Assembly: GCA_951406725.2 (NCBI GenBank)
Contig: OX597814.1
Coordinates: 133,796,001 to 133,860,000, forward strand
From: Octopus vulgaris
Taxonomy: Eukaryota
DNA: 64,000 nucleotides
Direction of reading: 5' to 3'
Part shown: in pieces, positions 2,484 to 59,414 of the stretch
Layout: every line of letters begins with the position of its first letter
How positions within the stretch are numbered: the first letter of the stretch is position 1
Made by a program: the position numbers and the translations under genes
The notes under the pieces: generated by a model
What the model was told of the DNA's origin: nothing
The model's input: the letters and a program-made list of their open reading frames with translations, nothing else
Databases searched by the model: none

Positions 2484-3206
2484 AAATATACACCTATCAC
2501 TAGCCCAACAGTAAGGAAAAGGAATAATAGAAATAGGAAGGTCATCTGGTTTACGCCCCCTTACTCACCCGAGGTGGCCTTCAATATAGGTAAATATTTC
2601 CTAGCACTGATAGATAGACATTTTCCAGTTAACCATACTTATAGGAAACTCTTCAATAGACACAATTTAAAAATTAGTTTTAGATCAACTACCAATTTTA
2701 AAAACATAATCAAACATAACATACAAAAAACACAACAACAAAACAGCTGTTCATGCAGGAATAAAGAATTGTGCCCGCTAAATGGAGCTTGCATGTCCAA
2801 GACCATCATATATGAAGCTACCGTAAACTCTATAACCACTAAAGACACCGTTTCGACGAAGAAATACGTGGGCCTTACAGAGGGTAATTTCAAGGCCAGG
2901 TTCAATAACCACACTTTGAGCTTTAGGAACTGGAACAAAAGAAAAGCGACACAATTATCTAATCATATTTGGTATTTAAGAGATAAAGGTGTCGATTATA
3001 ACATACAATGGAAGATTTTGGCCAGATGTAAGCCCTATACTAACGGCAGCGGAAGGTGCGGTCTATGCGACATGGAGAGATGGCTTATCTGGAAAAGCAG
3101 CTTAGACCCTACTACATGTCTAAATACAAGGACAGAGCTTTTCGGATCATGCCCACATGTGACTAAATTTCTGTTACGTTTTTGGTCCCCTAAAGAAAAC
3201 AGATAG
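2484..3206 (+). CDS. Penelope-like linker + GIY-YIG endonuclease (truncated C-terminal part of ORF)
   Basis: Open frame from 2484: RKVIWFTPPYS..V..NIG, CSCR....CPL.G.C, IIYEA...YVG.TEG.FK.RF.NH, LS..IW.L, C.LC..E, LN.R.EL...C.H. Confidence 0.85.
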   Translation, partial: KYTPITSPTVRKRNNRNRKVIWFTPPYSPEVAFNIGKYFLALIDRHFPVNHTYRKLFNRHNLKISFRSTTNFKNIIKHNIQKTQQQNSCSCRNKELCPLNGACMSKTIIYEATVNSITTKDTVSTKKYVGLTEGNFKARFNNHTLSFRNWNKRKATQLSNHIWYLRDKGVDYNIQWKILARCKPYTNGSGRCGLCDMERWLIWKSSLDPTTCLNTRTELFGSCPHVTKFLLRFWSPKENR

Positions 3207-4014: not shown

Positions 4015-4628
<614 letters not shown>

Positions 4629-4799
4629 TATGGCCCGTCGTTGGCGGGTCATAGTGCTAGTGCATGTATATATGTGTATATATATGTGTACATATTACAT
4701 GTACATCTATATATATATACATCTACACATAAAATACAAAATACAAAGTTATATCTTGATATTGCTAGTGATAACAATACTCAAAATATATAACAGACT

Positions 4800-5111
4800 G
4801 GAATTGTAAGCTCGTCTCTTGCAATTTCGATCAATTGTATCTTGTCCTCCCTCTTTTATAGAAGTGTGGCTACAATCCAGCCTACCTCAACTTCGGGGGG
4901 AGGGAGCATTTTTTATTTTTATCCTGCACGACCTACGTCCCAGATATAAAGGTAAAAATAAAATATTTCCACTTTGTAAGTTCGAGTTGAGTACTCCCTT
5001 GCACGCTCCTTTGACTCGAACCTTGCTTCTATTGTGGCGAATTTACCGCCTCTGGTTAGATATCTTTCATAGTCGCACCAAGACACTTTTCGATAGTGCT
5101 TTCCTCCAGGT
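4800..5111 (-). pseudogene. Degenerate Tx1-like ORF1 fragment (element C)
   Basis: With frameshifts reads 'NLEESTIEKCLGATMKDI / YLTRGGKFATIEARFESKERARE / FLPLYLGRRSCRIKIKNAPSPEVEVGWIVATLL', homologous to ORF1 of the two neighbouring elements (IEKCLG, RGKKFGTVEVR, PSYKGRR, NIPPEV..EW). Confidence 0.75.
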
Positions 5112-5357
5112 TGTTTTATTATTACCCACAAGGGGCGAACATAGATGGGACAATACAATCTGATGATGGGGTCAGACAAACGAATGGGTTTTTACAATAA
5201 ATCGGATTTAAAAATTTTCATGAATTACAATAAATGGACAGAAATCGAATGATGGGACAGACCGGAAGACATTACGGGTGGAGTGGGTGCGGGTTTAGCT
5301 CGGACCCCACGAGCCCCGCCTCCCCACTGATACTTTTGGTTGCGCTTGGTATTACAT

Positions 5358-8300
5358 TTATGTTGTATCTTTCACTCGCAACTTTCGTGCTACATCCTTC
5401 CATCGTTCTTCATACACTCTCCTAGTCAGGCATATTCTCTCCAGCCCTATCTTCCTTTTCAGGTGAAAGATGAAATACTTCATCAAACCAGGGCCGGAGA
5501 TGAACTTGCCTGACTGTAAACCTTTCATTCTCGTCTTCCATATCACCTCTTTCGCAATTGCTACTACAACGAGAAAACGAAACTTACCTTCATTCACGAG
5601 GAAATCCGGTGGGTCAATTTTTGTAATCGACTCAGTCGACAGCTGTACTCTTCGTGTACCTGACAACAGCTGTTCGGCATAAACCCACACCTCAGACACG
5701 TCCGGACAATGAACAATAGCGTGCGGGACGGTTTCCCTATCCCGCCCGCATCTTGGACATATCGGACTGTCTTGGCCACCGTGCCTTGCGAGTTTATCCC
5801 GAACAGGTAGAGCTCCTCTGTAGCATTGCCATGCCAGAGACTTCTGGAAGTTGTCCAGTGTCCTCGGCTCGAACGTACGTCGGAACAGACTGGCCAGCTG
5901 ATTATCGTCGAGACCTAGGGTTTCCCCCAAGGTATCTTCACATTCCGCCTCAACCAACCCTCTATAGAAGAATGTGGTGGAACCCCCACCGCAGGCGTTG
6001 CCCGAGCGACGGAATAGCAGGAGAGCCTTGCGACACTCCGTGTACCAAGTACCAAGTTTCGATCTACGATTCAGCCAGGTTTCCCATCCACCGAAACTAG
6101 TGAACTTGGGAAACATCAGTTTTGCTAGCGAAGACCACACCCGTTCACCATCCAGGTAGACCACAGATGTCTTAACCTCAGCGCATGTCTGCGCATCATC
6201 AGCCAAGGCATCCCTAGCCCACCCTTTAACGGTTGTTGACAGCAAGTAGAGCGTTTCACAAGTGGTTTCCCGCCCTTCCACAAGAAGTAGAAGAGCTGTC
6301 TTTCCAACTTGATCAACCACGAATCAGGGCAAGGAACGACGGAAAGGCGGTAGGTGATAACCGATGCGATAAACACATTGGCCACCTCCGCCCTCCCTTT
6401 CAGGGATAGCCACCGCCAAGACCAGGTCTTGGCTACTGCAGCCACCTTGCTCGTTACCTCGCCCCAATTCTTCTCTATTTGGAGGTCTGGACCGAACCAG
6501 ACCCCTAGCAGTTTAATCGGACCCTCCGTCCAACGTCCCACGACGCTGTCAGGAGGCATCGACTTGCCTCTCCAGGTGCCGAGTTGCAAGCCGACTGACT
6601 TTTCGCGATTAACTTTTGCTCCTGTCACCGTCTCGTAAACCTCTATGGCCTTGCCTACTTTACATAGGTGGTCCATTTCGGTTACGATGATGGTGATGTC
6701 ATCCGCGTACGCTGACACTGATTTTCCATTACCTGGCTGTCTCGGGATGCCGCTCAGTTTTCGCAGTAATGGCTCAAGAGCCATCACGTACAAAAGCGGG
6801 GAGAGCGGACACCCTTGACGAACCGAGTGTTTGATTTTGAACGGCTTCGACAAGAAGCCGTTCACCCGAACTACCGAGTCGATGTTATCATAAATTTGGA
6901 TAATCCACCTGAGGAAGCCAAGGCTCAGCCCGAACTGTGCCAGGGCAGCTACCAGGTAACGATGGTCGACCCTATCAAAAGCTTTAGATTGGTCTAAATG
7001 GACCAGTGCCCCACCCTTGCCAGAATCACTATTAAACCCCTCTATAGTGTACCGCATTAGATGGAGATTATCCTGAATGGATCTGCCCGGAACGGCACAT
7101 GTCTGTGCCTCTCCGATCAGACCATCCGCGACACGCGCCAATCTTTTCGATAACACTTTGGCCAAAATCTTCAACTCTGTGTTTAGCAGAGTGATGGGCC
7201 TGAAATTATCAATGCACTCCCCCTTGCTCGGGTCCTTTCTGACGAGAGTCACTACTCCCCGGCGCACAGATCTGGGTATAAGCCCGTTCTGCTGCCAGTT
7301 CGCATAGACCTCCGCCAGTAGGTGCCCGAACAAGTCTGGCATACTCTTATATAACTCATAGGGTAGACCATCCAAACCCGGCGCCTTGCCCGCGCCGCAG
7401 TCCGCCATTGCCTCAACCACCTCCTCAGGCGTGATTGGCCCTTCACAGCCCTCCGCATCTCGCCCCGATAAGCGCGGCAGACCGTCGAGGAGGTCCGTAA
7501 AGGCCCTCCTCCTATCCAGTCCGCCGCACTCACCGAAAAGCTGAGCGAAGTGCTCCTGAAAGGCCTCACACATCTCCTCGGGTTCGTTTATCAACTCACC
7601 TTGTTGGTTCGTCAAAGATCGAATCGTGGCATCGTTACCATGCTGAGCTTCCACCACTCGGGCCCATCTCACGGCGTTGATTCCTTCACATCCCATATGA
7701 CGGATTCTAGCCCTGACAATGCAGCCCATGTGTTTGGCCTCGAGGTGCTGGTTTAACACCAGTCTCTTGGACGCCACCTGAGCCGCAGAGCCAGTTTTCA
7801 TGGCTTCCTCTAATTCCTTAACTAGAGTAGTTTCCCTTCTAGCCTCTCTAGCCACTACTCCTATGCTATATCTAATAGACTCAAACTTGATGGCTCGTTT
7901 GAGGGCGTACCACCATTTGTTATTAATGATGGTACCAGATAGTGCCCTCTGAATTATATTCCTAATCCGGTCTTTGTACTCCTTAATCGCCAAAAGGGAC
8001 GTATTAAGTTTCCAGTAACCGGATCCTCTATTTTTAACCTTATCTATGTCAAGCTTACAAGTGACCATTTTATGATCACTGTAGCTGATCGGGTAAAACT
8101 GTGGACACTTAGCTATTTTACTGTCTACTTTTCTAATTAGTATTCTATCTAAATATGACCTGGAAGATCCGTCGCTGTTTGACCATGTCCACAATGGAGC
8201 GTTCGGAAATTCCAGCCTATAAGGATCTGCTAGCTCAAAGCGGCTTAGCAGTTCCATGAAGCCACTGTTGCCTTTTCTATCTGGACGCGAGCCAACACAA

Positions 8301-8752
8301 TCTACATCCGCTTTGCAAATTGTGTTAAAGTCTCCTAGCACCACTAATGAATGCGAAGTACCAAGAAAGTTTTCTAGTTCACGAAAATAATCACTTTGCC
8401 CTGTATGGTTGGGTGCGTAAATTGCAACCAGTCTGATAACTTTACCATTACTGAACGTCAAATCCATGACGACCAGCCTACCTTCTGGATCTGCAAAAAT
8501 TAACTTTTTCTCAGAAACCCGGTTTCTTTTTAATAGGACCAACACCCCACTCCCGCCTGTAGGACTGCCAGGAGAGAAAAAACTCTCGTAGCCGTCAAAC
8601 AGCGGGAGTAGACCTCTTGGCCCCTCTAACCGGGTTTCTGTAGCAACAATAACATCTAAATTACGCGACCTGATATCATGCAGGAAGCGACCTTGCTTCC
8701 AGCCTGCTCCAAGGCCGCGCACATTCAAACAACCAACATAAATGTAATCCAT
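5358..8752 (-). pseudogene. ORF2: APE endonuclease + reverse transcriptase + C-terminal cysteine motif; one frameshift near 6165
   Basis: APE motifs LNVRGL, ETRL, GDFN, SYLDRIL, SDH; RT motifs KAPGLDG, FRPITLLN, DQSKAFDRVDH, VRQGCPLSP, YADD; C-terminal CPRC...ETVPHAIVHC in a second frame. Confidence 0.93.
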
Positions 8753-8760
8753 TACTTACC

Positions 8761-10142
8761 TTATATCAGTGGTTCGGTTTTCTCTTGTTCTTCTAACTCT
8801 TTTTCTGGGCCTCGTGGGGGAGTCTGACGTAGGCCCTCGAATATATGTGGAGATGTCACATCCAATCTAAGTGGGCCTACGTCATGGAAGAATTCTGACT
8901 TTATCCGCCCGTAATCCTTCCGGCCTATTCTGTAAATTACAAAGTCGTTTTTTTTTCACTACTTTCTCCACTTTGGCCATGGCTGCCAACACGTTTCCGA
9001 GTCTGCTATTTGCTGCCTTTACGGCCATATACGAGTTCATTGACTCTTTTTTCTTTTTTAAAATTACTCTGGGAGGGGTGGTTTCCGTTTTTCTTTTTTT
9101 TTTTCCGGTAATGTTTGCCCACCCCTCCTCATTTATCTTTTCCTCGCTCTTTTTTTCCTCCGCCGCTGGTTCTGCTGTCACCGTCACCTCCACACCTTCA
9201 GTCTTCCCTTCTGGGCCGTCCGACGCTGCTTCTGGTGACACATTATCTTCTTTTTCTTTTGGCTTTGGTGCTTCCTGCGGTTTGGGTTGGGGTTGGCATT
9301 CCGCCCTTACATGACCCTTCTTGCCGCAGCCGAAGCACCTCGGCTTCCTGCCCTCCACGAAAACTGTTATTTTCTCGTCTTCACTAATCTTTACCGTTTC
9401 TGGAATTTCTTCCAGTGTTTGCACCTCCGCCTGAATGGCTATCACTATTTTCTGCCCTTTCCAGAACTCCTCTTCCTCCACTGTGGCCTGGAGGATGTTT
9501 ATTTTTTCCTCCAGACCTACCATCACTGCTGCCACCAGACATTCAGCATCTGCCTCTGGCGGTATGTTGTTCATTGAAATTTTCGACGTCCTTTTTCCTT
9601 TATACAATGGTAGTAAGACAATGTTTTCCGCTTTGATCGGCTCCATCGATAGTTTCTTCGCTATCTCCTCCGTAGTAAAACGCACCTCCACTGTGCCGCA
9701 TCTTTTTCCTCTGTTTATATACGTTATTTTATCCATAAAAGGTTTTAGACAAAACTCTATTTTTTTTTCTTCGATTTTTTGGATCATTTTTGTCGTTGTG
9801 TCGTAAGTTTTATATATTATTCTTTTTTTTTTCTATCTCGTCATGTTTTTGTATGTTTGTGGCCACAGTCACTTCTGTGCCTTCTTTTTTTACACAGTCT
9901 GCAAATTTTCCAAAATTTTCTATATTTATTTTTTTGATCTTTTTCCCAGCCACTTCAGCGAATTTTTTTGCTGGAGTTGATGCTGGTACTGGTTTTTCCA
10001 TTTTCTTGGGCGACGCCGCCTCTTTTTTTCTTCGGCGACAACACCTCTTTTTTTCTTGGCGACAACGCCTCTTTTTTCTTGGCGACAACGCCGGGTATTC
10101 ATCCTCGCTCGTCACGGGCGAATAAGAGATGGGGGACTCCAT
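8761..10142 (-). pseudogene. ORF1 (gag-like nucleic-acid-binding protein, zinc knuckle), frameshifted
   Basis: Segments 10142-9810 and 9787-8882; CFGCGKKGHVRAEC zinc knuckle; lies directly upstream of ORF2. Confidence 0.85.
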
Positions 10143-10369
10143 CTTGAACAAATGGCTTTAACAAGCCTTTGGTAAATCCAAATTAATGGTAGTTTTCCCC
10201 CACTGAGGGGGGAACACCAACGCGAAGTCTTCGCGCGAAGGCTGACTTCGTCAGTTAGACAACAATAGACAAAACAGGTAGACCAACAGTATATAATAAC
10301 AGAGATAATAGTACGAGAGCAAAAATATATCAACTTACTAATAACGCAAAAAATTGATTTCCTCCAGGT

Positions 10370-11948
10370 GATTTTATTACTACCCACAAGGGGCCAACAT
10401 AGATGGGACAATACAATCGGGGAACTTAAAATAAGAAAGCGAATGACAAGAAAAGGAAAAAATAAAAGTAAAAAATGACATATGAAAGAATATTTACAAT
10501 GAGATGTAAATGCCCACTCGATCCCCGGAATCGAGAGGTTACATTTTCGTCACATATATTTCACAAAATTTTCTTTTTTCTCTTCTTTCTTCTCTCTCTT
10601 CTCACAATTCTATACATATTCCATAATAGCTTTCAATTCTCTAAAGTCCATCACTGAGCCCTCAGGCAGCCGCTCTCTCACTCGAACACTCGTGTAAAAT
10701 ATTACACTCTCTCCGGCAGCTCTGAGGAACTCAGCGACTCTTTCTTCGGGGATTAGAGCAGTCTCCTGCCACTGATCGGTCATCCTGTTGACCCATATAT
10801 GTCCCTCCGTATTACATGTCAAGTCTTTCATTTCAGGGCAGAAATGGAAGGTTACTAACTTGTAGAAGCAGTAATCTTGTTTCCGTCCTACGTTTTCCTT
10901 CATTTTTCTTTTCGGGCTTATTTCTTCCTTGTTCTCCTCTCTTTGTTTCTCTCTTTCTCTCTTTTTGCCTTCTTTTCTTTCTCCTTCCTTCTCTTGTCTT
11001 TTTGGTTCTTTGTCTGTTCTCTCTTTCTCTCGTGTTTTATGTTCCTTTTCTTTTTCTTTTTGTGTGCCGTCTTTTCTTTTCGTTTGATTCTGATCTCTCT
11101 CTTGTTTTTTTCCTGTTGTTTCTTTTTCCTTTTTTTTTCCTGACTCTGTTTTGGTTCTATTTCTTTCTTTTCTTTTATTTCTTTTTCCTTCATTGACTTA
11201 TTATTTCCTTTCTCTTGTTGTTTTGTTTCCTTTTCTATGTTTTCTTTTTCATTTACCGTATTCTTCTTTTCTTCAAGTTCCTGCTCGCACTCCGCTACGA
11301 ATTCGTATAACGGGCACTCTTTTTTAATGTGCCCCCTTGTCCCACACAAGTAACAGTTTGGTTTTCTTCCCTCTACAATTACACTGAGGGTTTTTTCATC
11401 TTCAATTTCAATTCTGTAGGGGAACCTTTCAATGTCCTCTTTTGTGGCCATCAAACACAGTTCTACCCCATATCCTCTCCAGTTTACCGCGTTGGACTCC
11501 TTAAAGGATTCCACCTCCACTTCCTCTTCTGCTGCTCCTAGAATAGCTGTTGCCAGCCATTCTGTTTTCACTTCTGGGGGTATATTCGGGATTTTAACCC
11601 GGACCCCTCTTCTTCCCTTGTATGAGGGCCACATTGTAAATTTTTCGGCTCTTAGTACAGTGGTAGCCAGTGAAGCTGCAATTTCTTCCGTTGCACATCT
11701 CACCTCCACCGTACCAAATTTCTTGCCTCTACTCACGTAGGTTGTTTTCCCCATTATGTCTCCCAGACATTTTTCAATTTCGGCTATCTCCACTCTTGCC
11801 AGTTTCTTCGTATTTTTGTCTTGGGTTCTGTATGTCACTGTCTTGCTTTGTTTGTTCTCTTTTGCTTTCGCGGGGGGGATTAGCTTCACGCTATCACCCT
11901 CCCTTTTGAAGAGCTTTTCATATTCTTTGAGTTTATCCTTCTCAATTT
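10370..11948 (-). mobile_element. ORF1-only (HAL1-like) non-autonomous Tx1-related element (element A), 5'-truncated
   Basis: ORF1 homologue (CYLCGTRGHIKKEC), then a K/E-rich region and a 97-aa segment, ~190 bp UTR, and the same 3' tail as element B. No APE/RT motifs between ORF1 and the tail. Confidence 0.75.
10610..11945 (-). pseudogene. ORF1 of element A (zinc knuckle), frameshifted in the lysine-rich tract
   Basis: ORFs 10918-11889 and 10610-10903; shares VEGRKP.C..CG..GH...EC with ORF1 of element B. Confidence 0.75.
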
Positions 11949-12199
11949 TATATCACTTGCTATTTTTACTTTTGTTATGATACGATTATATTATACTTTA
12001 GTTTGACTTTAATTATTATTTACTACATATAATTCAATTGTTATTATTATTTTTATTGTTAAAGTGAAAGTATCTGACATAAAATAGAGAAATGTTTTTG
12101 TTTCACTTTTAACACGTAATACTGAAATAGTGGAGAAGATATGATATTGCTATAGGCTCGCTCTAGGCAAGAAGTTGAACATTTTTTGCCGATGACACT

Positions 12200-12315
12200 C
12201 CCCGGAACCTAAGTAAGGCGTGTGTAAAATTTGAATGAAATTGGTTGTGTAGTTCTCAATTTTTAGGGAAACACGCAGACAGACAGACACACATTCTCAG
12301 TTTTATATATATAGC
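12200..12315 (-). mobile_element. 5' end fragment of non-autonomous Helitron-like repeat
   Basis: AAATTTGAATGAAATTGG...ACAGACAGACACAC...TTTTATATATATAG resembles the ends at 50700-50766 and 52560-52629. Confidence 0.4.
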
Positions 12316-13544: not shown

Positions 13545-13742
13545 TGATTCCAAACTTTGGCACAAGGCCAGCAGTTTCGGGAAGGGGTAAGTCGATTGCA
13601 TCGCCCCAGTATTCAAATGGTACTTATTTATCAACCTCAAAAGGATGAAAGGTAAAGTCGACCTCAGTGGAATTTGAACTCAGAATGTAAAGACGGGCGA
13701 AATACCGCCAATCGTGCTAACGATTCTGCCACATCACTACCT
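13545..13742 (-). mobile_element. tRNA-derived SINE, family B
   Basis: Minus strand A-box TGGCAGAATCGTT, B-box GAGTTCAAATTCC, central GAGGTCGACTTTACCTTTCATCC...GATAAAATAAGTACC; tail GGCCTTGTGCCAAAG. Confidence 0.8.

Positions 13743-13834
<92 letters not shown>
13743..13834. repeat. (TAA)n microsatellite
   Basis: Direct inspection. Confidence 0.95.
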
Positions 13835-13836
<2 letters not shown>

Positions 13837-14540
13837 TAAGGACCACCTTATCTCTGGATGTAAAGTCTTAGCACTAGTGGAGTATAAATTAAGACATGAC
13901 AGAGTTGGCCGATATCTACACTGGCTAATAAGTCGGCATTACAATATCAAAACTGCCGACAAGCGGTATAACCACCACCCTGAAGCTGTAACTGAAGGAG
14001 AAAATGTAACCATTCTGTGGGACTTTCCAGTACATACAGACCGAACCATCAAAGCCAATAAACCAGATATTGTTGTGAAAGACCAAAACAATAAAGTGTG
14101 CTTATTGATCGACATGAGCGTCCCCTGCGATCATAATATCTCGGCGAAAGAGTTTGACAAGCTCAGAAAATATAAAGACCTGCTCATTGAAATTGAGAAA
14201 ATGTGGCATCTCAAGGCGGTTACAATACCAGTGATCGTAGGAGCACTAGGAATGATCAAGAAGGGAACCGAAAATTATATGAGAATGATCTCTGGCTTAC
14301 CATCCCTGCAAGAAGTGCAAAAGATTGTCTTAACTGGTACATCACACGTATTGAGAAGAGCTTTGTCGATGTGAGAACTATTACTACCCATGTATTTTAA
14401 TTTAAGTTTTAAAAAAATGAACGAACTATTGAGTTTAGTTTAATGGCCTACCAATGTATACTATGAGTTTCTTTGCACTAGGAGTCGGGAAGACACTCGG
14501 CAAGAAATGGAAGCAAATTTGAAAGAAGAAAAAAAAATAA
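13835..14540 (+). mobile_element. 5'-truncated R4/Dong-clade non-LTR element (restriction-like endonuclease C-terminus) in (TAA)n
   Basis: HLISGC...Y..RHD, ILWD...TDR...ANKPDIVV, LIDMSVP, K..KY.DL, IPVIVGALG; ORF ends at 14374; TAA repeats on both sides (established Dong target). Confidence 0.88.
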
Positions 14541-15760: not shown

Positions 15761-16830
15761 CATCTTCAGATTCTTTTTCAAAATATTGTTAACGTAATTT
15801 TACATCAGTTTAAAATTAAGCGTTAAATTAATCATTAAAAATAAAAATTTAAAAATTAAATTTTACAAAATTAAGAATTAAAAAATTATAAATTATAATT
15901 ATAAATTAGTATACACATATCAAATTTATAAAGTCAAGTATACAATGTCAAATATAAAATATAAAATTATACGTCAGAATAAAAATGTATGTGATTAAAT
16001 GTGGAAAATAATGTAAAAACTAAAGATACTCTTTTGATAGAGCAGGATGTCATTCAAAATGGCGATCAAAGGAAGTGAAAATAGCAAAGCACTATGGGAA
16101 TTTATCGATGATATGTTCCAAGGGGGGTAATTCCATTATAGATAGTTTAAATTAAATCATCTATTATTATCTTCTATCCAACTGTGTTGAGAAATATATA
16201 TAATTTGTTATAATATAATATTTCGCAATATTTAAAGTAATTGATCAATTTAATTATTTATATAACATATTCAACTAGTGTAGAGATCAAGAGTACGTGG
16301 TGATTAGAATCGAGGGGGGGGGGCAGTTCAGTATTTCATTCTACTGAAAGTAAAAGTAATTTGGTGTCTACTTTCATAAGTATTGACACATATGGTTGCA
16401 TGTGGTCCTCTCTCATGGTATGTGTTTAGTAATTCATCTCTATACTGTATTAGTTTCATAATTTCTGTTATACATAATAAACACATTTTATTCCCAATAT
16501 TATAAGAGTGGGCTCCAACTAAGGGTGTAATCTGTTTTTCTAGATTTCAATTCCCATAAATATTTACTTAAACCTGTGGACTTATTTAAATTAGGATTTT
16601 TGAAGGTCTGGTAGTGTTGGGAGATTCTTTTTTAAATTTCATTATTCAATATAAACCTTTTTATATTTTCATTATTGTTGTTCATAGAGCTTACTATACA
16701 TTTATAAATTACTTTATCAATATTACAATTATTAGTGAGCTTACATTTAGTCTTATCACGATATGAACATTTATCTATATATGGATTAAGAGTTCCATCA
16801 CTATCGATTATGGGCCAAAAAGACAAGAAT
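15735..16830 (-). mobile_element. Degenerate Penelope-like (GIY-YIG) remnant
   Basis: Minus strand reads 'KCSYRDKTKCKLTNNCNIDKVIYKCIV', then 'KRISQHYQTFKNP...STGLSKYLWELK' with stops; ends in a truncated CTGAAGA motif near 15763-15769. Confidence 0.7.
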
Positions 16831-16839
16831 AGTCATCGT

Positions 16840-17842
16840 CGTGTTTTGTTGTGTTTGCTCTCGGTACTATATTCTCCGCAAAGTTTGGCGGGCACCGACA
16901 ATATTGGATGTTCTCAGTCTTATCATTAATGGTGCGAAACCAAGTATTACCAATTCGTTGATAACTGATGAAGAATTAGGGACCTTCTATATCTGTCTCC
17001 CGTCTGGTTGTACACTCAGTATATGTTATGTCGTTTGTTTATTTACCATACATTTTTTCATTTATTAAGTAACGAAACGCAAACACACCGAATAGTATTA
17101 ACAGTAAGTTTTTCCATAAATCCGCGTGAGTCTTTCTTGCCTTCAACCTTTCTCCATTTCTTTCTTTCACTCTCTCACTTCTATTCTAGCCTTTCCACTT
17201 TCACCATTTCTCTCTCTCTCTCTCTCTCTCCCTCTTGTATTCCTAGCTTTTCTCCTTTCTCTTTTCCCCTTCATCCCTTCCTCTTTTTCTCTCTGTCGCT
17301 CTCTCCCTCTCTCTTACCCTCTTTCTCCTCTGCCCGCTACTATCACGTGACTCGTGGCCAGCTTTCACAGCTTTCTCTTCCTTTCTCGCACTGGTCCCGT
17401 AACTGACCAGTCCCAAATTCTCTGTCTCACTGCTTTCTGTCCTTTGGGAGTTCATCTAAGCGTTACTCACTATTCTTCTCTTTTTGGGCTCGAAGGGTGT
17501 ATTTTGGTCGTTTCTTGTTTATTTCGTCTTTGTTCATCGTCTTAAATCAAATTTATTCAATTTCGTGTGTCCACTCTCTATTGTATTGTTTTGTTTGGTT
17601 TTGTTTGCTCTCGGCACTATATTCTCCGCAAATTTTTCTGAGCACCGTCAATATGGTAAGTTCTCAGTCTCATCATTAATGGTGCAAAACTGAGTATTAC
17701 TAATTAGTTGACAACTGATGAAAAGTTAGTGACCTTCTGTGTCTGTCTCCCGTCCAGTTGTACACTCAATATAAGTTATGTGGTTTGTTTATTTACCAAA
17801 CATTCTTTCATCTATTAAGTAACGGAATGCAACGCACATCGA

Positions 17843-50799: not shown

Positions 50800-51378
50800 C
50801 AAAGAAAAGCATACATTCACTCTCTGCATGCAATTAGACTCGGAAAGTTCGTGAGGAACCCATTGACCCAATTTGCTGACTTTTTCGATAGCACACAGGT
50901 CTCAATGAATGGTTGAATGACCAAATCCAAGCTTCTCTGCTAGTTCCTCAACAGTTACGATGAGATTTTGTTCCACCAGGGTTTTCAGGATGTCCTTGTC
51001 GAGTTCTACAGATCTTTCAGGATGAGACTCGTCTTCTAGGCTGTAGTTTATGGCTCGGAATTTCTGGAACCACCATTGACACTGCCTTACGCTTATTGTC
51101 CAATCCCCATATACTGCATTAATATTTCTTGTACTTTCTGTTGCGTTGTTGTCTTTATTGAACTCATAAAGCAAAATATGCCAAATATGCTCCTTTGTTA
51201 CTTCCAACATAGCTTTGAAAAAAATAGCTGTTAAAATCGAAATGCACTCTTCAAAACTTGCACTATGAATAAGGACAAGATAAAATTACTACCTGCTTTT
51301 ATAGCAAGTTAATATAAGTAGTTTATCACATTCCCCTCTGACTTTTAGTTCAAGCTGTTGAAAAAACCGCATTATTAT
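50800..51378 (-). mobile_element. Mariner remnant (5' end plus transposase HTH region 51210-50902)
   Basis: 'MEVTKEHIWHILLYEFNK...ATE..RNINAVYG...ISVRQCQWWFQKFR..NYSLEDE...VTVEELAEKLG' is a mariner N-terminus. Confidence 0.85.
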
Positions 51379-53350: not shown

Positions 53351-53420
53351 AATACATTCTCTGCTTTGGTCATATGTTGAAGGCATGAGAAAGCTTGAGT
53401 TTACATGAGAAGGCCTAACA

Positions 53421-53898
53421 GACCTGGTAGAAACAGCAGCCAAATCTCCCTCAAATCACACCTTACTGTCTTATGTATGTATATATATATGAGCCAATGA
53501 GGGGGACCTCTACATGGTAGCTAGACCTGGTAGAAATAGCAGCCAAATTCCCCCAAATCACACCTTACTGTCTTATCAATGTATATATGTATGTATGAGC
53601 CTATGAGGGAGACCCCTACATGGCAGCTAGACCTGGTAGAAATAGCAGCCAAATTTCCCCCAAATCACACCTTACTGTCTTATCTATGTATATATGTATG
53701 TATGAGCCTATGAGGGAGACCCCTACATGGCAGCTAGACCTGGTAGAAATAGCAGCCAAATTTCCCCCAAATCACACCTTACTGTCTTATCTATGTATAT
53801 ATGTATGTATGAGCCTATGAGGGAGACCCCTACATGGCAGCTAGACATGGTAGAAATAGCAGCCAAATCTCCCTCAAATCACACCTTACTGTCTTATC
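53421..53898. repeat. Minisatellite, ~107-bp unit x ~4.5
   Basis: GACCTGGTAGAAATAGCAGCCAAAT... recurs at about 53421, 53524, 53630, 53737 and 53844. Confidence 0.95.
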
Positions 53899-54136
53899 TT
53901 TCTGCTACTTGGATATAGGTGTTATATTCGTCGTAAAAAAACTTTCCTGTCACACACTCACGCACACGCACACACACACACACGCACCCTCACACACACA
54001 CACACGCGCACACCCACACACACCCACTCACACACACGCACGTTAGCTTACAATTTTATTTATATATTTGCGTGTCTGTGTGGAAAGAGGAAGTGGGAGG
54101 CAGAGTGAAAGAATCACTCACTACAGTAAGTCAATT

Positions 54137-58069: not shown

Positions 58070-58274
58070 GTGTGTGTATGTGTGTGTGTGAGTTGTGTGT
58101 GTGTGTAAACTCTTGTATGCAGAGGCTTCAGTGTAAAGAAGAAGAGAAAAAAGAAGACAATATGCTGAAACAGTGCAAAAATATATTGTATATGTTAAAC
58201 GACAGGTTTCAATTTCGTAACTCTCATAAATATCAATTCCAAATATTGGCAGAAGACCAGTAGATTTGGAGAGG

Positions 58275-58430
58275 GAGTAACTCGAATACATCGACCCCAC
58301 TGCTCAATTAGTATTTATTTTATCCCGCCCCCAAGTATGAAATTCTAAGTCGACGTCGGTGGAATTTGAACTCAGGACGTAAAGACGGACGAAACACCTT
58401 TAAGCATATTGCCAGGCGTGCCAACAATTC
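58275..58430 (-). mobile_element. Older SINE family B copy, cut within its A-box
   Basis: TACATCGACCCC...AAGTCGACGTCGGTGGAATTTGAACTCAG...TGCCAACAATTC. Confidence 0.75.
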
Positions 58431-58657
58431 TTATTTCTTTAATACCCACAAGGGGCTAAACACAGAAGGGACAAACAAGGACAGACAAACGGATTAAGTC
58501 AATTACATCGCCCCCAGTGCGTAACTGGTACTTAATTTATCGACCCCGAAAGGATGAAAGTCGACCTCGGCGTAATTTGAACTCATAACGTAACGGCAGA
58601 CGAAATACGGCTACGCATTTCGCCCGGCGTGCTAACGATTCTGCCAGTTCGCCGCCT
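58431..58657 (-). mobile_element. Full-length tRNA-SINE family B with Tx1-like 3' tail
   Basis: Head GGCGGCGAACTGGCAGAATCGTTAG, B-box GAGTTCAAATTAC; tail TTGTCCCTTCTGTGTTTAGCCCCTTGTGGGTATTAAAG matches the 3' end of elements A and B. Confidence 0.88.
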
Positions 58658-59414
58658 TTATAACACTTATAAATATTAACATAAACTTTTTTTAAAAGAT
58701 TAAATAGATATATTGTAACAAACAAAACAGTTCTTGTCTCTAAGAAATTCCCGCTTATATAATTCTTTTGGATGATTTTGAAACTGAAGATATTCGTTTC
58801 AGTACCTAGAAAATGTTAATGCATATTCTCAATTCTCTAAATATTTTTGATTGATGACAATATTGATTATAACTTATTACCAAGCGACATAAATTCTGAA
58901 GTTTGAGAGAGTTGCCATTCTGCTATATATCTATATTATAAGAATATTTGAAGCCGATATTATATAATATATCTACTCGATATAGCACAATGTTTATGAG
59001 GGACAGTATGTATTTTCAAATTTGACTCAAATCCTACAACATATCTGTTTTTCTCTTTCTCGCTGAATAGATATGAGGGTGTAACATGTTTTCCACTTTC
59101 AAGTAGGTTCCAGAAACTCATTCCGAAGTGTGATATATATATGAGTGTCTTTAATATTCTTTTCTCAAACTATCCACAACGCGCAGGTGGTCATTTGCAT
59201 GGTTTTAGAACTTGATACACTTATAAAAACACAATTTTCTTTCTCTATTACATGGATTGATATTTATATCATACGTTATTTACCTCTGGTCAATATATCT
59301 TTCTATCATTCTTCCTCTATATCACCCTTTTCCCTTGTACTTCACTGTGTATGTGTACGTGTGCGTGTTTGTACGTGTATATGTGTGTACGTATGTATGT
59401 ATATATACACATAT

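Follow-up and report, generated by a model that had tools for sequence, protein, structure and literature searches.

A probable ORF1-only L1/Tx1-type retrotransposon in Octopus vulgaris that shares its 3′ tail with a neighbouring autonomous LINE and a SINE-like element

The window (the whole 64,000-nucleotide stretch analysed here, positions 133,796,001 to 133,860,000 of Octopus vulgaris contig OX597814.1, assembly GCA_951406725.2) consists of eukaryotic DNA rich in AT and microsatellites. Three related units, designated A (~11955-10370), B (10357-5112) and C (5111-~4810), lie in tandem and in the same orientation on its minus strand; within the window, unrelated sequence extends for ~4.8 kb on one side of them and for 52 kb on the other. 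The features of this array, together with a distant SINE-like element, are listed in Table 1.

Table 1. Features of the A-B-C array and the SINE-like element, in window coordinates
Feature	Position	Strand	Basis or remark
Element A ORF1, N-terminal frame: two predicted RRM-like domains, CCHC knuckle, start of Lys/Glu-rich linker	11139-11952	-	Domain arrangement as modelled for relative P0022
CCHC zinc knuckle of A ORF1	11314-11355	-	Pfam PF00098 (zf-CCHC), E=7e-5
A9 run, frameshift site of A ORF1	11130-11138	-	Four O. vulgaris clusters read through
A ORF1, C-terminal frame: charged linker, C-terminal domain, stop	10610-11131	-	91-98% identity to P0001, P0004, P0005, P0007
C-terminal domain of A ORF1, predicted ferredoxin-like beta-alpha-beta-beta-alpha-beta	10613-10873	-	Model pLDDT 76.7
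3′-UTR of A, 240 nt, without ORF2 remnant	10370-10609	-	Profile search, folding
Hairpin with CTCG/CGAG ends, 8 bp, in the UTR of A	10517-10535	-	Motif present; candidate counterpart in B at 5299-5313
Shared 3′ tail of A	10370-10418	-	Core hairpin GCCC-CTTGT-GGGT at 10382-10394, invariant
12-bp sequence between A and B	10358-10369	-	Same sequence as 5100-5111; likely a target-site duplication made by B
Element B, full-length L1/Tx1-type LINE, 5246 bp	5112-10357	-	Pfam domains, structure match, frames
12-bp repeat, second copy	5100-5111	-	In frame with the first ORF1 codons of C
Element C, decayed internal ORF1 fragment, third related family	4810-5111	-	Family HMM; lower boundary approximate
SINE-like element, related tail at 58431-58478	58431-58660	-	Tail similarity

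Element B has a 5′-UTR of 215 nt, an ORF1 (10142-8761) with two A-run frameshifts, a spacer of 8 nt, an ORF2 (8752-5358) with one frameshift and Pfam matches to APE, RT and zf-RVT, and a 3′-UTR of 246 nt that includes the tail at 5112-5160. The closest solved structure to its ORF2 is L1 ORF2p (E=2e-65), and the best database relatives are 65-70% identical, one of them bearing the name Argonauta hians; the 120 ORF2 relatives listed include no named Tx1 element and no entry named O. vulgaris. Judged from its APE, L1-like RT and type I ORF1, B is classed as an L1/Tx1-type LINE, an assignment that does not choose between L1 and Tx1. Its ORF2 contains no stop over 3381 nt, implying that B is young. 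The available text of PMC13282606 describes 13 recently active L1-Tx1 families in O. vulgaris, with 421 insertions covering 2.29 Mb at ~5.4 kb each, an average length to which B (5.25 kb) comes close. A 25-nt tandem repeat of 3.8 copies occupies the start of B ORF1 (10001-10092); past an A9-run frameshift, the same ORF1 runs into a conserved C-terminal domain (8761-8956, minus strand) and stops 8 nt before ORF2.

The ORF1 of element A carries the zinc knuckle that the original prediction had read from the sequence (~11314-11355), and it is clearly diverged from that of B, as also proposed, with 38% identity over 177 aa. The start codon of A ORF1 and the 5′-UTR are missing and homology to relatives begins only at ~11950, showing that this copy is 5′-truncated near 11955. 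A one-base shift in the A9 run splits the ORF1; since the O. vulgaris assembly derives from Nanopore and 10x reads (PMC13282606, in the part available), the shift could be a sequencing error or real slippage. The stop codon at 10612-10610 is followed by 240 nt to the end of the element. The prediction that A has no ORF2 holds for this copy: a profile built from 29 near full-length ORF2 relatives and searched against 3576 six-frame peptides of the window matched only B, and the best score in the 3′ region of A was E 0.098, with a sensitivity at which ORF2 ends of 30 residues were detected (E 0.001-0.003) and those of 20 residues or fewer not reliably. Neither a target-site duplication at the 5′ end of A nor another tail or poly(A) of its own was found.

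A profile of the A and B ORF1s retrieved 887 relatives (clusters) among 1.84 billion representatives. The model of one relative, P0022, built on 59 sequences, showed two alpha/beta domains (pLDDT ~90) followed by the knuckle, and the best Foldseek matches of these domains were tandem RRMs (E 4e-4). Atlas neighbours of the ORF1 were CCHC, ZCCHC3-RBD and DUF4283 clusters. In a Pfam comparison, zf-CCHC matched 17 of 59 ORF1 relatives and Transposase_22 none. On these models, the ORF1 of A is predicted to be of type I (tandem RRM-like domains plus CCHC), a type described in the accessible part of PMC5203782 as consistent with Tx1 in non-mammalian animals, and would therefore be Tx1-like and not that of a mammalian HAL1. 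The HAL1 label originally suggested for A is thus not supported, as the ORF1 of HAL1 is of mammalian type II (Transposase_22: coiled coil, single RRM and CTD; PMC5203782, same part).

The C-terminal 87 residues of A were modelled as beta-alpha-beta-beta-alpha-beta; the best model reached pLDDT 76.7, and three of the five models were below 45. Structure comparison returned generic ferredoxin-like matches only (best Z 6.7), with no match in the ESM Atlas, none in Foldseek at E<=0.001 and none in VIA at Z>=8; the lack of a specific match does not amount to evidence of a new fold. Six relatives carry a C-terminal domain, and the top match of their profile among 1587 window peptides was a frameshifted piece of B ORF1 (E=5e-4). 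The corresponding domain of P0022 shows the same order of elements as that of A at lower confidence, and comparison of the A domain with the family-domain profile by HMM and hhalign gave no significant homology. The segment, described at first as distinct to A, is distinct in sequence, but B and other relatives share its predicted topology, and it is probably a diverged version of the family domain. In a quick tree of A, B, C and 45 selected relatives, in which 20 of 45 inner branches were unsupported, A grouped with four other relatives (SH-aLRT 95) and B with two (99) on separate branches, while C was close to neither group.

A search with residues 35-230 of A ORF1 yielded nine proteins out of 833 candidates, all named O. 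vulgaris. Six of these clusters were 96-100% identical to A over the matched part and the other three 78-88%. The six near-identical clusters comprise 28 member sequences, a count that isoforms or assembly versions may inflate so that the loci are possibly fewer, and the contigs that carry them have four different lengths; four of them read through the A-run and finish with the terminal residues of A. At the protein level, these matches indicate that A is a dispersed multi-copy family and not a single locus. Pooled over the four clusters, 19 of 34 distinct substitutions were conservative (positive BLOSUM62) compared with 38-41% expected (P 0.02-0.05), the mean BLOSUM62 of A-family substitutions was above neutral (P 0.001-0.003), and in the C-terminal domain 10 of 17 substitutions were conservative; these values lean towards purifying selection, for which they are a protein-level proxy in which pooled substitutions are non-independent events and annotation favours open frames. 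All six cluster representatives begin at internal ORF1 positions, which fits 5′ truncation within the ORF1 of a short element; the argument is weak because a B-like protein begins internally too. No fused A-ORF1/ORF2 protein occurred among 7997 long candidates, and ORF2 was found on the same protein as ORF1 in none of 153 proteins screened, B-like ones included (153 of 156, three knuckle-repeat proteins having been dropped). The absence of A-ORF2 fusions is uninformative, as no relative shows a fusion either. Several O. vulgaris gene models annotated as ‘uncharacterized’ (P0001-P0009) correspond to ORF1s of the retrotransposon family of A, with P0003, P0008 and P0009 forming a related subfamily (59-70% identical where measured).

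The 3′ tail of A was expected to be nearly identical to that of B, and alignment of 10370-10418 with 5112-5160 showed 45 of 49 positions identical, with two of the four mismatches within the first 47 nt (96% over 47 nt). The match extends past the tails to 10355/5097 (92% over 64 nt), both tails being followed by 12 more identical bases. The element at 58431-58660 is one that we take to be a SINE, because by eye it shows A- and B-box-like motifs and resembles known octopus SINEs; ARAGORN (tRNA) and Rfam scans were empty. Over 47 nt, its tail (58433-58478) agrees with that of A at 83% of positions. These identities agree with the proposal that the ORF1-only element A has a 3′ signal in common with the autonomous B and the SINE. 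The tail sequence had no match in bacterial and archaeal genomes, and tail-derived peptides were absent from 276 retrieved proteins.

The UTR of A, purine-rich and then pyrimidine-rich, folds into a long stem (z -2.35; 2 of 200 shuffles), and the block shared with B forms a stem-loop in A that is closed at both block ends. One small 4-bp core hairpin is kept in the tails of A, B and the SINE, with no covariation. The long stem that the tail forms in A and in B was rejected as a common structure, being lost once the SINE enters the three-way consensus. CTCG...CGAG hairpins had also been proposed ahead of both tails. The motifs are present at 10517-10535 and 5299-5313, 99 nt (A) and 139 nt (B) before the tail, but their reading as a shared signal or as homologous is not supported: the bases of the B motif pair otherwise in the local minimum-energy fold, and ahead of the tail the two UTRs show no alignment (a score as high was reached in 188 of 500 shuffles). 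Shuffling 5000 times produced such a motif at rates of 0.9% and 0.4%, figures that apply to a motif picked after the fact. A by-eye impression that UTR similarity continues upstream of the tail was likewise dropped, as 258 of 2000 shuffles matched the adjacent 40 nt as well.

The 12-mer that follows both tails occurs only twice in the window and is absent after the SINE tail. In its position after B it lies in the ORF1 frame of C, whose first codons it supplies, and as high a score was obtained with 28 of 2000 random replacements. Element C itself was recognized through four pieces matching the family HMM (E=1.6e-9, 6e-7, 0.015 and 0.044). The 12-mer is likely a target-site duplication around B, which would imply that C, their apparent insertion target, received both A and B at one and the same nick. 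This common insertion site hints at LINE-on-LINE targeting. Somewhat speculatively, and on balance doubtfully, a Tx1-type LINE might target a conserved coding site (the EE..IE.CL region) in the ORF1 of rival LINEs, with an ORF1-only dependant following through the shared tail and same-strand stacks disabling the rival; if true, this would be LINE-on-LINE targeting with three tiers (LINE, ORF1-only element and SINE). Strict targeting is called into question by the SINE, which has the same tail but lies at a different sequence; in addition, searches revealed neither a 5′ target-site duplication of A nor, upstream, the 5′ half of C. B could instead have been drawn to the A/T-rich end of A or to its homologous tail.

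Taken together, the data make it likely that A is a 5′-truncated copy of a young, dispersed, ORF1-only, non-autonomous L1/Tx1-type LINE family mobilized by a B-type ORF2. The copy itself displays the ORF1-UTR-tail anatomy and a tail nearly that of B, and its ORF1 has many near-identical counterparts among O. vulgaris proteins; its lack of ORF2 would extend to the family. A is a real ORF1-only LINE, probably at family level. By analogy with LINE biology, from which transcription, cis action of ORF1p and trans-mobilization are taken, a full-length A master would be transcribed from its own 5′-UTR, which this copy lacks. Its ORF1 protein would package its own RNA in cis, and the RNA would recruit a B-type APE-RT ORF2 protein through the common 3′ hairpin for target-primed reverse transcription. 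A and B would have inserted successively, in either order, at one nick in the ORF1 of C, with the 12-bp duplication left around B. Because the ORF1s of A and B are only 38% identical, co-assembly of the two proteins is doubtful. A is more likely a parasite with its own chaperone than a helper of B.

Two comparisons with B speak for an ORF1-only element: merely 8 nt separate ORF1 from ORF2 in B, and the distance from stop to element end is 240 nt in A versus 246 nt in B. When single deletions removing most of ORF2 were simulated, ORF1 remained whole and ORF2 became invisible in 1.1% of cases (2.5-3.8% with a spacer of 100-200 nt). It is accordingly quite unlikely that A belongs to an autonomous sister family, with a tail conserved across the subclade, and that an internal deletion removed ORF2 from this copy only. 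Conservative substitution of a multi-copy ORF1 is equally expected of an autonomous family, the ORF1 superfamily is large (887 clusters) and 80 L1-Tx1 families are counted in O. vulgaris (supplement of PMC13282606, as far as available). Such a history would, however, need both a clean breakpoint, obtained in 1-4% of simulated deletions, and a tail identity of 96% between two families with no more than 38% identity in ORF1.

The edge of the tail bears on another unlikely origin, a one-off chimera in which the RT began on a B-type tail and switched after ~49 nt to the ORF1 transcript of another family, or in which A landed beside a short B-type tail fragment. The similarity of A and B drops sharply at the 5′ edge of the tail (10418/5160), as a template switch would leave it; by alignment the SINE and B have common bases upstream of this edge that A lacks, and template jumps are documented for R2 (PMC3414825, part of text). 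Yet the stop-to-end length of A is within 6 nt of that of B, the shared block coincides with the stem-loop closed at both ends in A, and A shows neither a further tail nor a poly(A) of its own. Sharing of the signal would be overstated if the whole 61-64-bp direct repeat, which flanks B exactly and extends 12-15 nt past the element ends, were a long target-site duplication or a gene conversion made at the insertion of B, so that the near-identity of the tails was local. This is very unlikely, since B is young and five mismatches in 64 have P=0.009 at 1% decay; at 2% decay P rises to 0.11, but zero stops then have P=0.07. Moreover, the mismatches cluster at the element end while the 12-mer is perfect, the distant SINE carries the same tail core, and A would still be ORF1-only even so.

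The probable ORF1-only family represented by A has parallels. Non-autonomous LINEs that retain ORF1 are known from three clades in the available text of PMC5786205, namely HeT-A (Jockey), HAL1 (L1) and Ag-Sponge (CR1). Like these bipartite elements, A combines an ORF1 with the 3′ end of an autonomous LINE and no reverse transcriptase, but no Tx1-type or molluscan example appears in that text. HAL1, which encodes only ORF1p and arose repeatedly from L1-superclade LINEs (PMC5753468, available part), resembles A in encoding ORF1p without ORF2p, as far as this copy goes, but besides its type II ORF1 it differs from A in that A ends in a sequence-specific tail common to a SINE, without poly(A), and resides in a mollusc. 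In Drosophila, HeT-A with TART/TAHRE likewise places a gag-only element head-to-tail with an RT-encoding relative (excerpted text of PMC5537684); the octopus array differs in its three units, its location in ordinary DNA rich in repeats and not at the end of a chromosome, its target duplication and its short UTR. Tx1 elements often prefer a target, sometimes another transposon, and tandem insertions can sandwich a target-site duplication (PMC4494074, in part). The crocodilian Tx1-associated SINEU-3 shows such tandem insertions around a duplication inside another transposon; the targets named in the same available text are DNA transposons, snRNA genes and microsatellites, whereas the apparent target here is the ORF1 of a related LINE, at one locus.

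No ORF1-only family is mentioned among the O. vulgaris L1-Tx1 elements in the accessible text and supplement of PMC13282606, and no report of ORF1-only Tx1-type or cephalopod elements was found in the literature searched, which took in few subscription papers and neither Repbase nor Dfam nor the 2026 Zenodo library. The strategy that A probably follows is a known one, for which these searches gave no report from the octopus lineage. If the family is real, its youth, type I ORF1 and sequence-specific tail would mark a further independent origin beyond Jockey, L1 and CR1. It would also provide a natural setting in which to ask why an element that borrows ORF2 keeps ORF1 in cis, given that a non-coding SINE manages with the same tail and no ORF1. 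The matches also suggest that a group of O. vulgaris gene models labelled ‘uncharacterized’ encode transposon ORF1s.

Other repeats were observed in the window. At 58236-58660 (minus strand) a second copy, truncated at its head and with a related body (73%), comes immediately after the tailed SINE-like one, and a third copy at 13547-13769 (minus strand) has the same body and a different 3′ end closing in (ATT)n. The differing 3′ ends on the same body suggest tail exchange. Octopus tRNA-derived SINEs are cited in PMC4758252 (available text). Open frames or fragments that by eye resemble ends of Penelope and RT-type LINEs were noted at 2484-3206 (plus), 13721-14374 (plus) and ~16400-16900 (minus); a Pfam scan of two of these frames gave no match. 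Upstream of A, the sequence at 11955-12312 (minus) starts like the 5′ end of a non-autonomous Helitron, and beyond C a hairpin plus CTAG at 4625-4662, on the opposite (plus) strand, resembles a Helitron 3′ end; both are presumably Helitron-like, a label given by eye. A fragment of a mariner Mos1-type HTH (Pfam PF17906, E=5e-20) lies at 50905-51285 (minus), and a tandem repeat with a 107-bp unit (4.5 copies, 94% matches) occupies 53420-53899.
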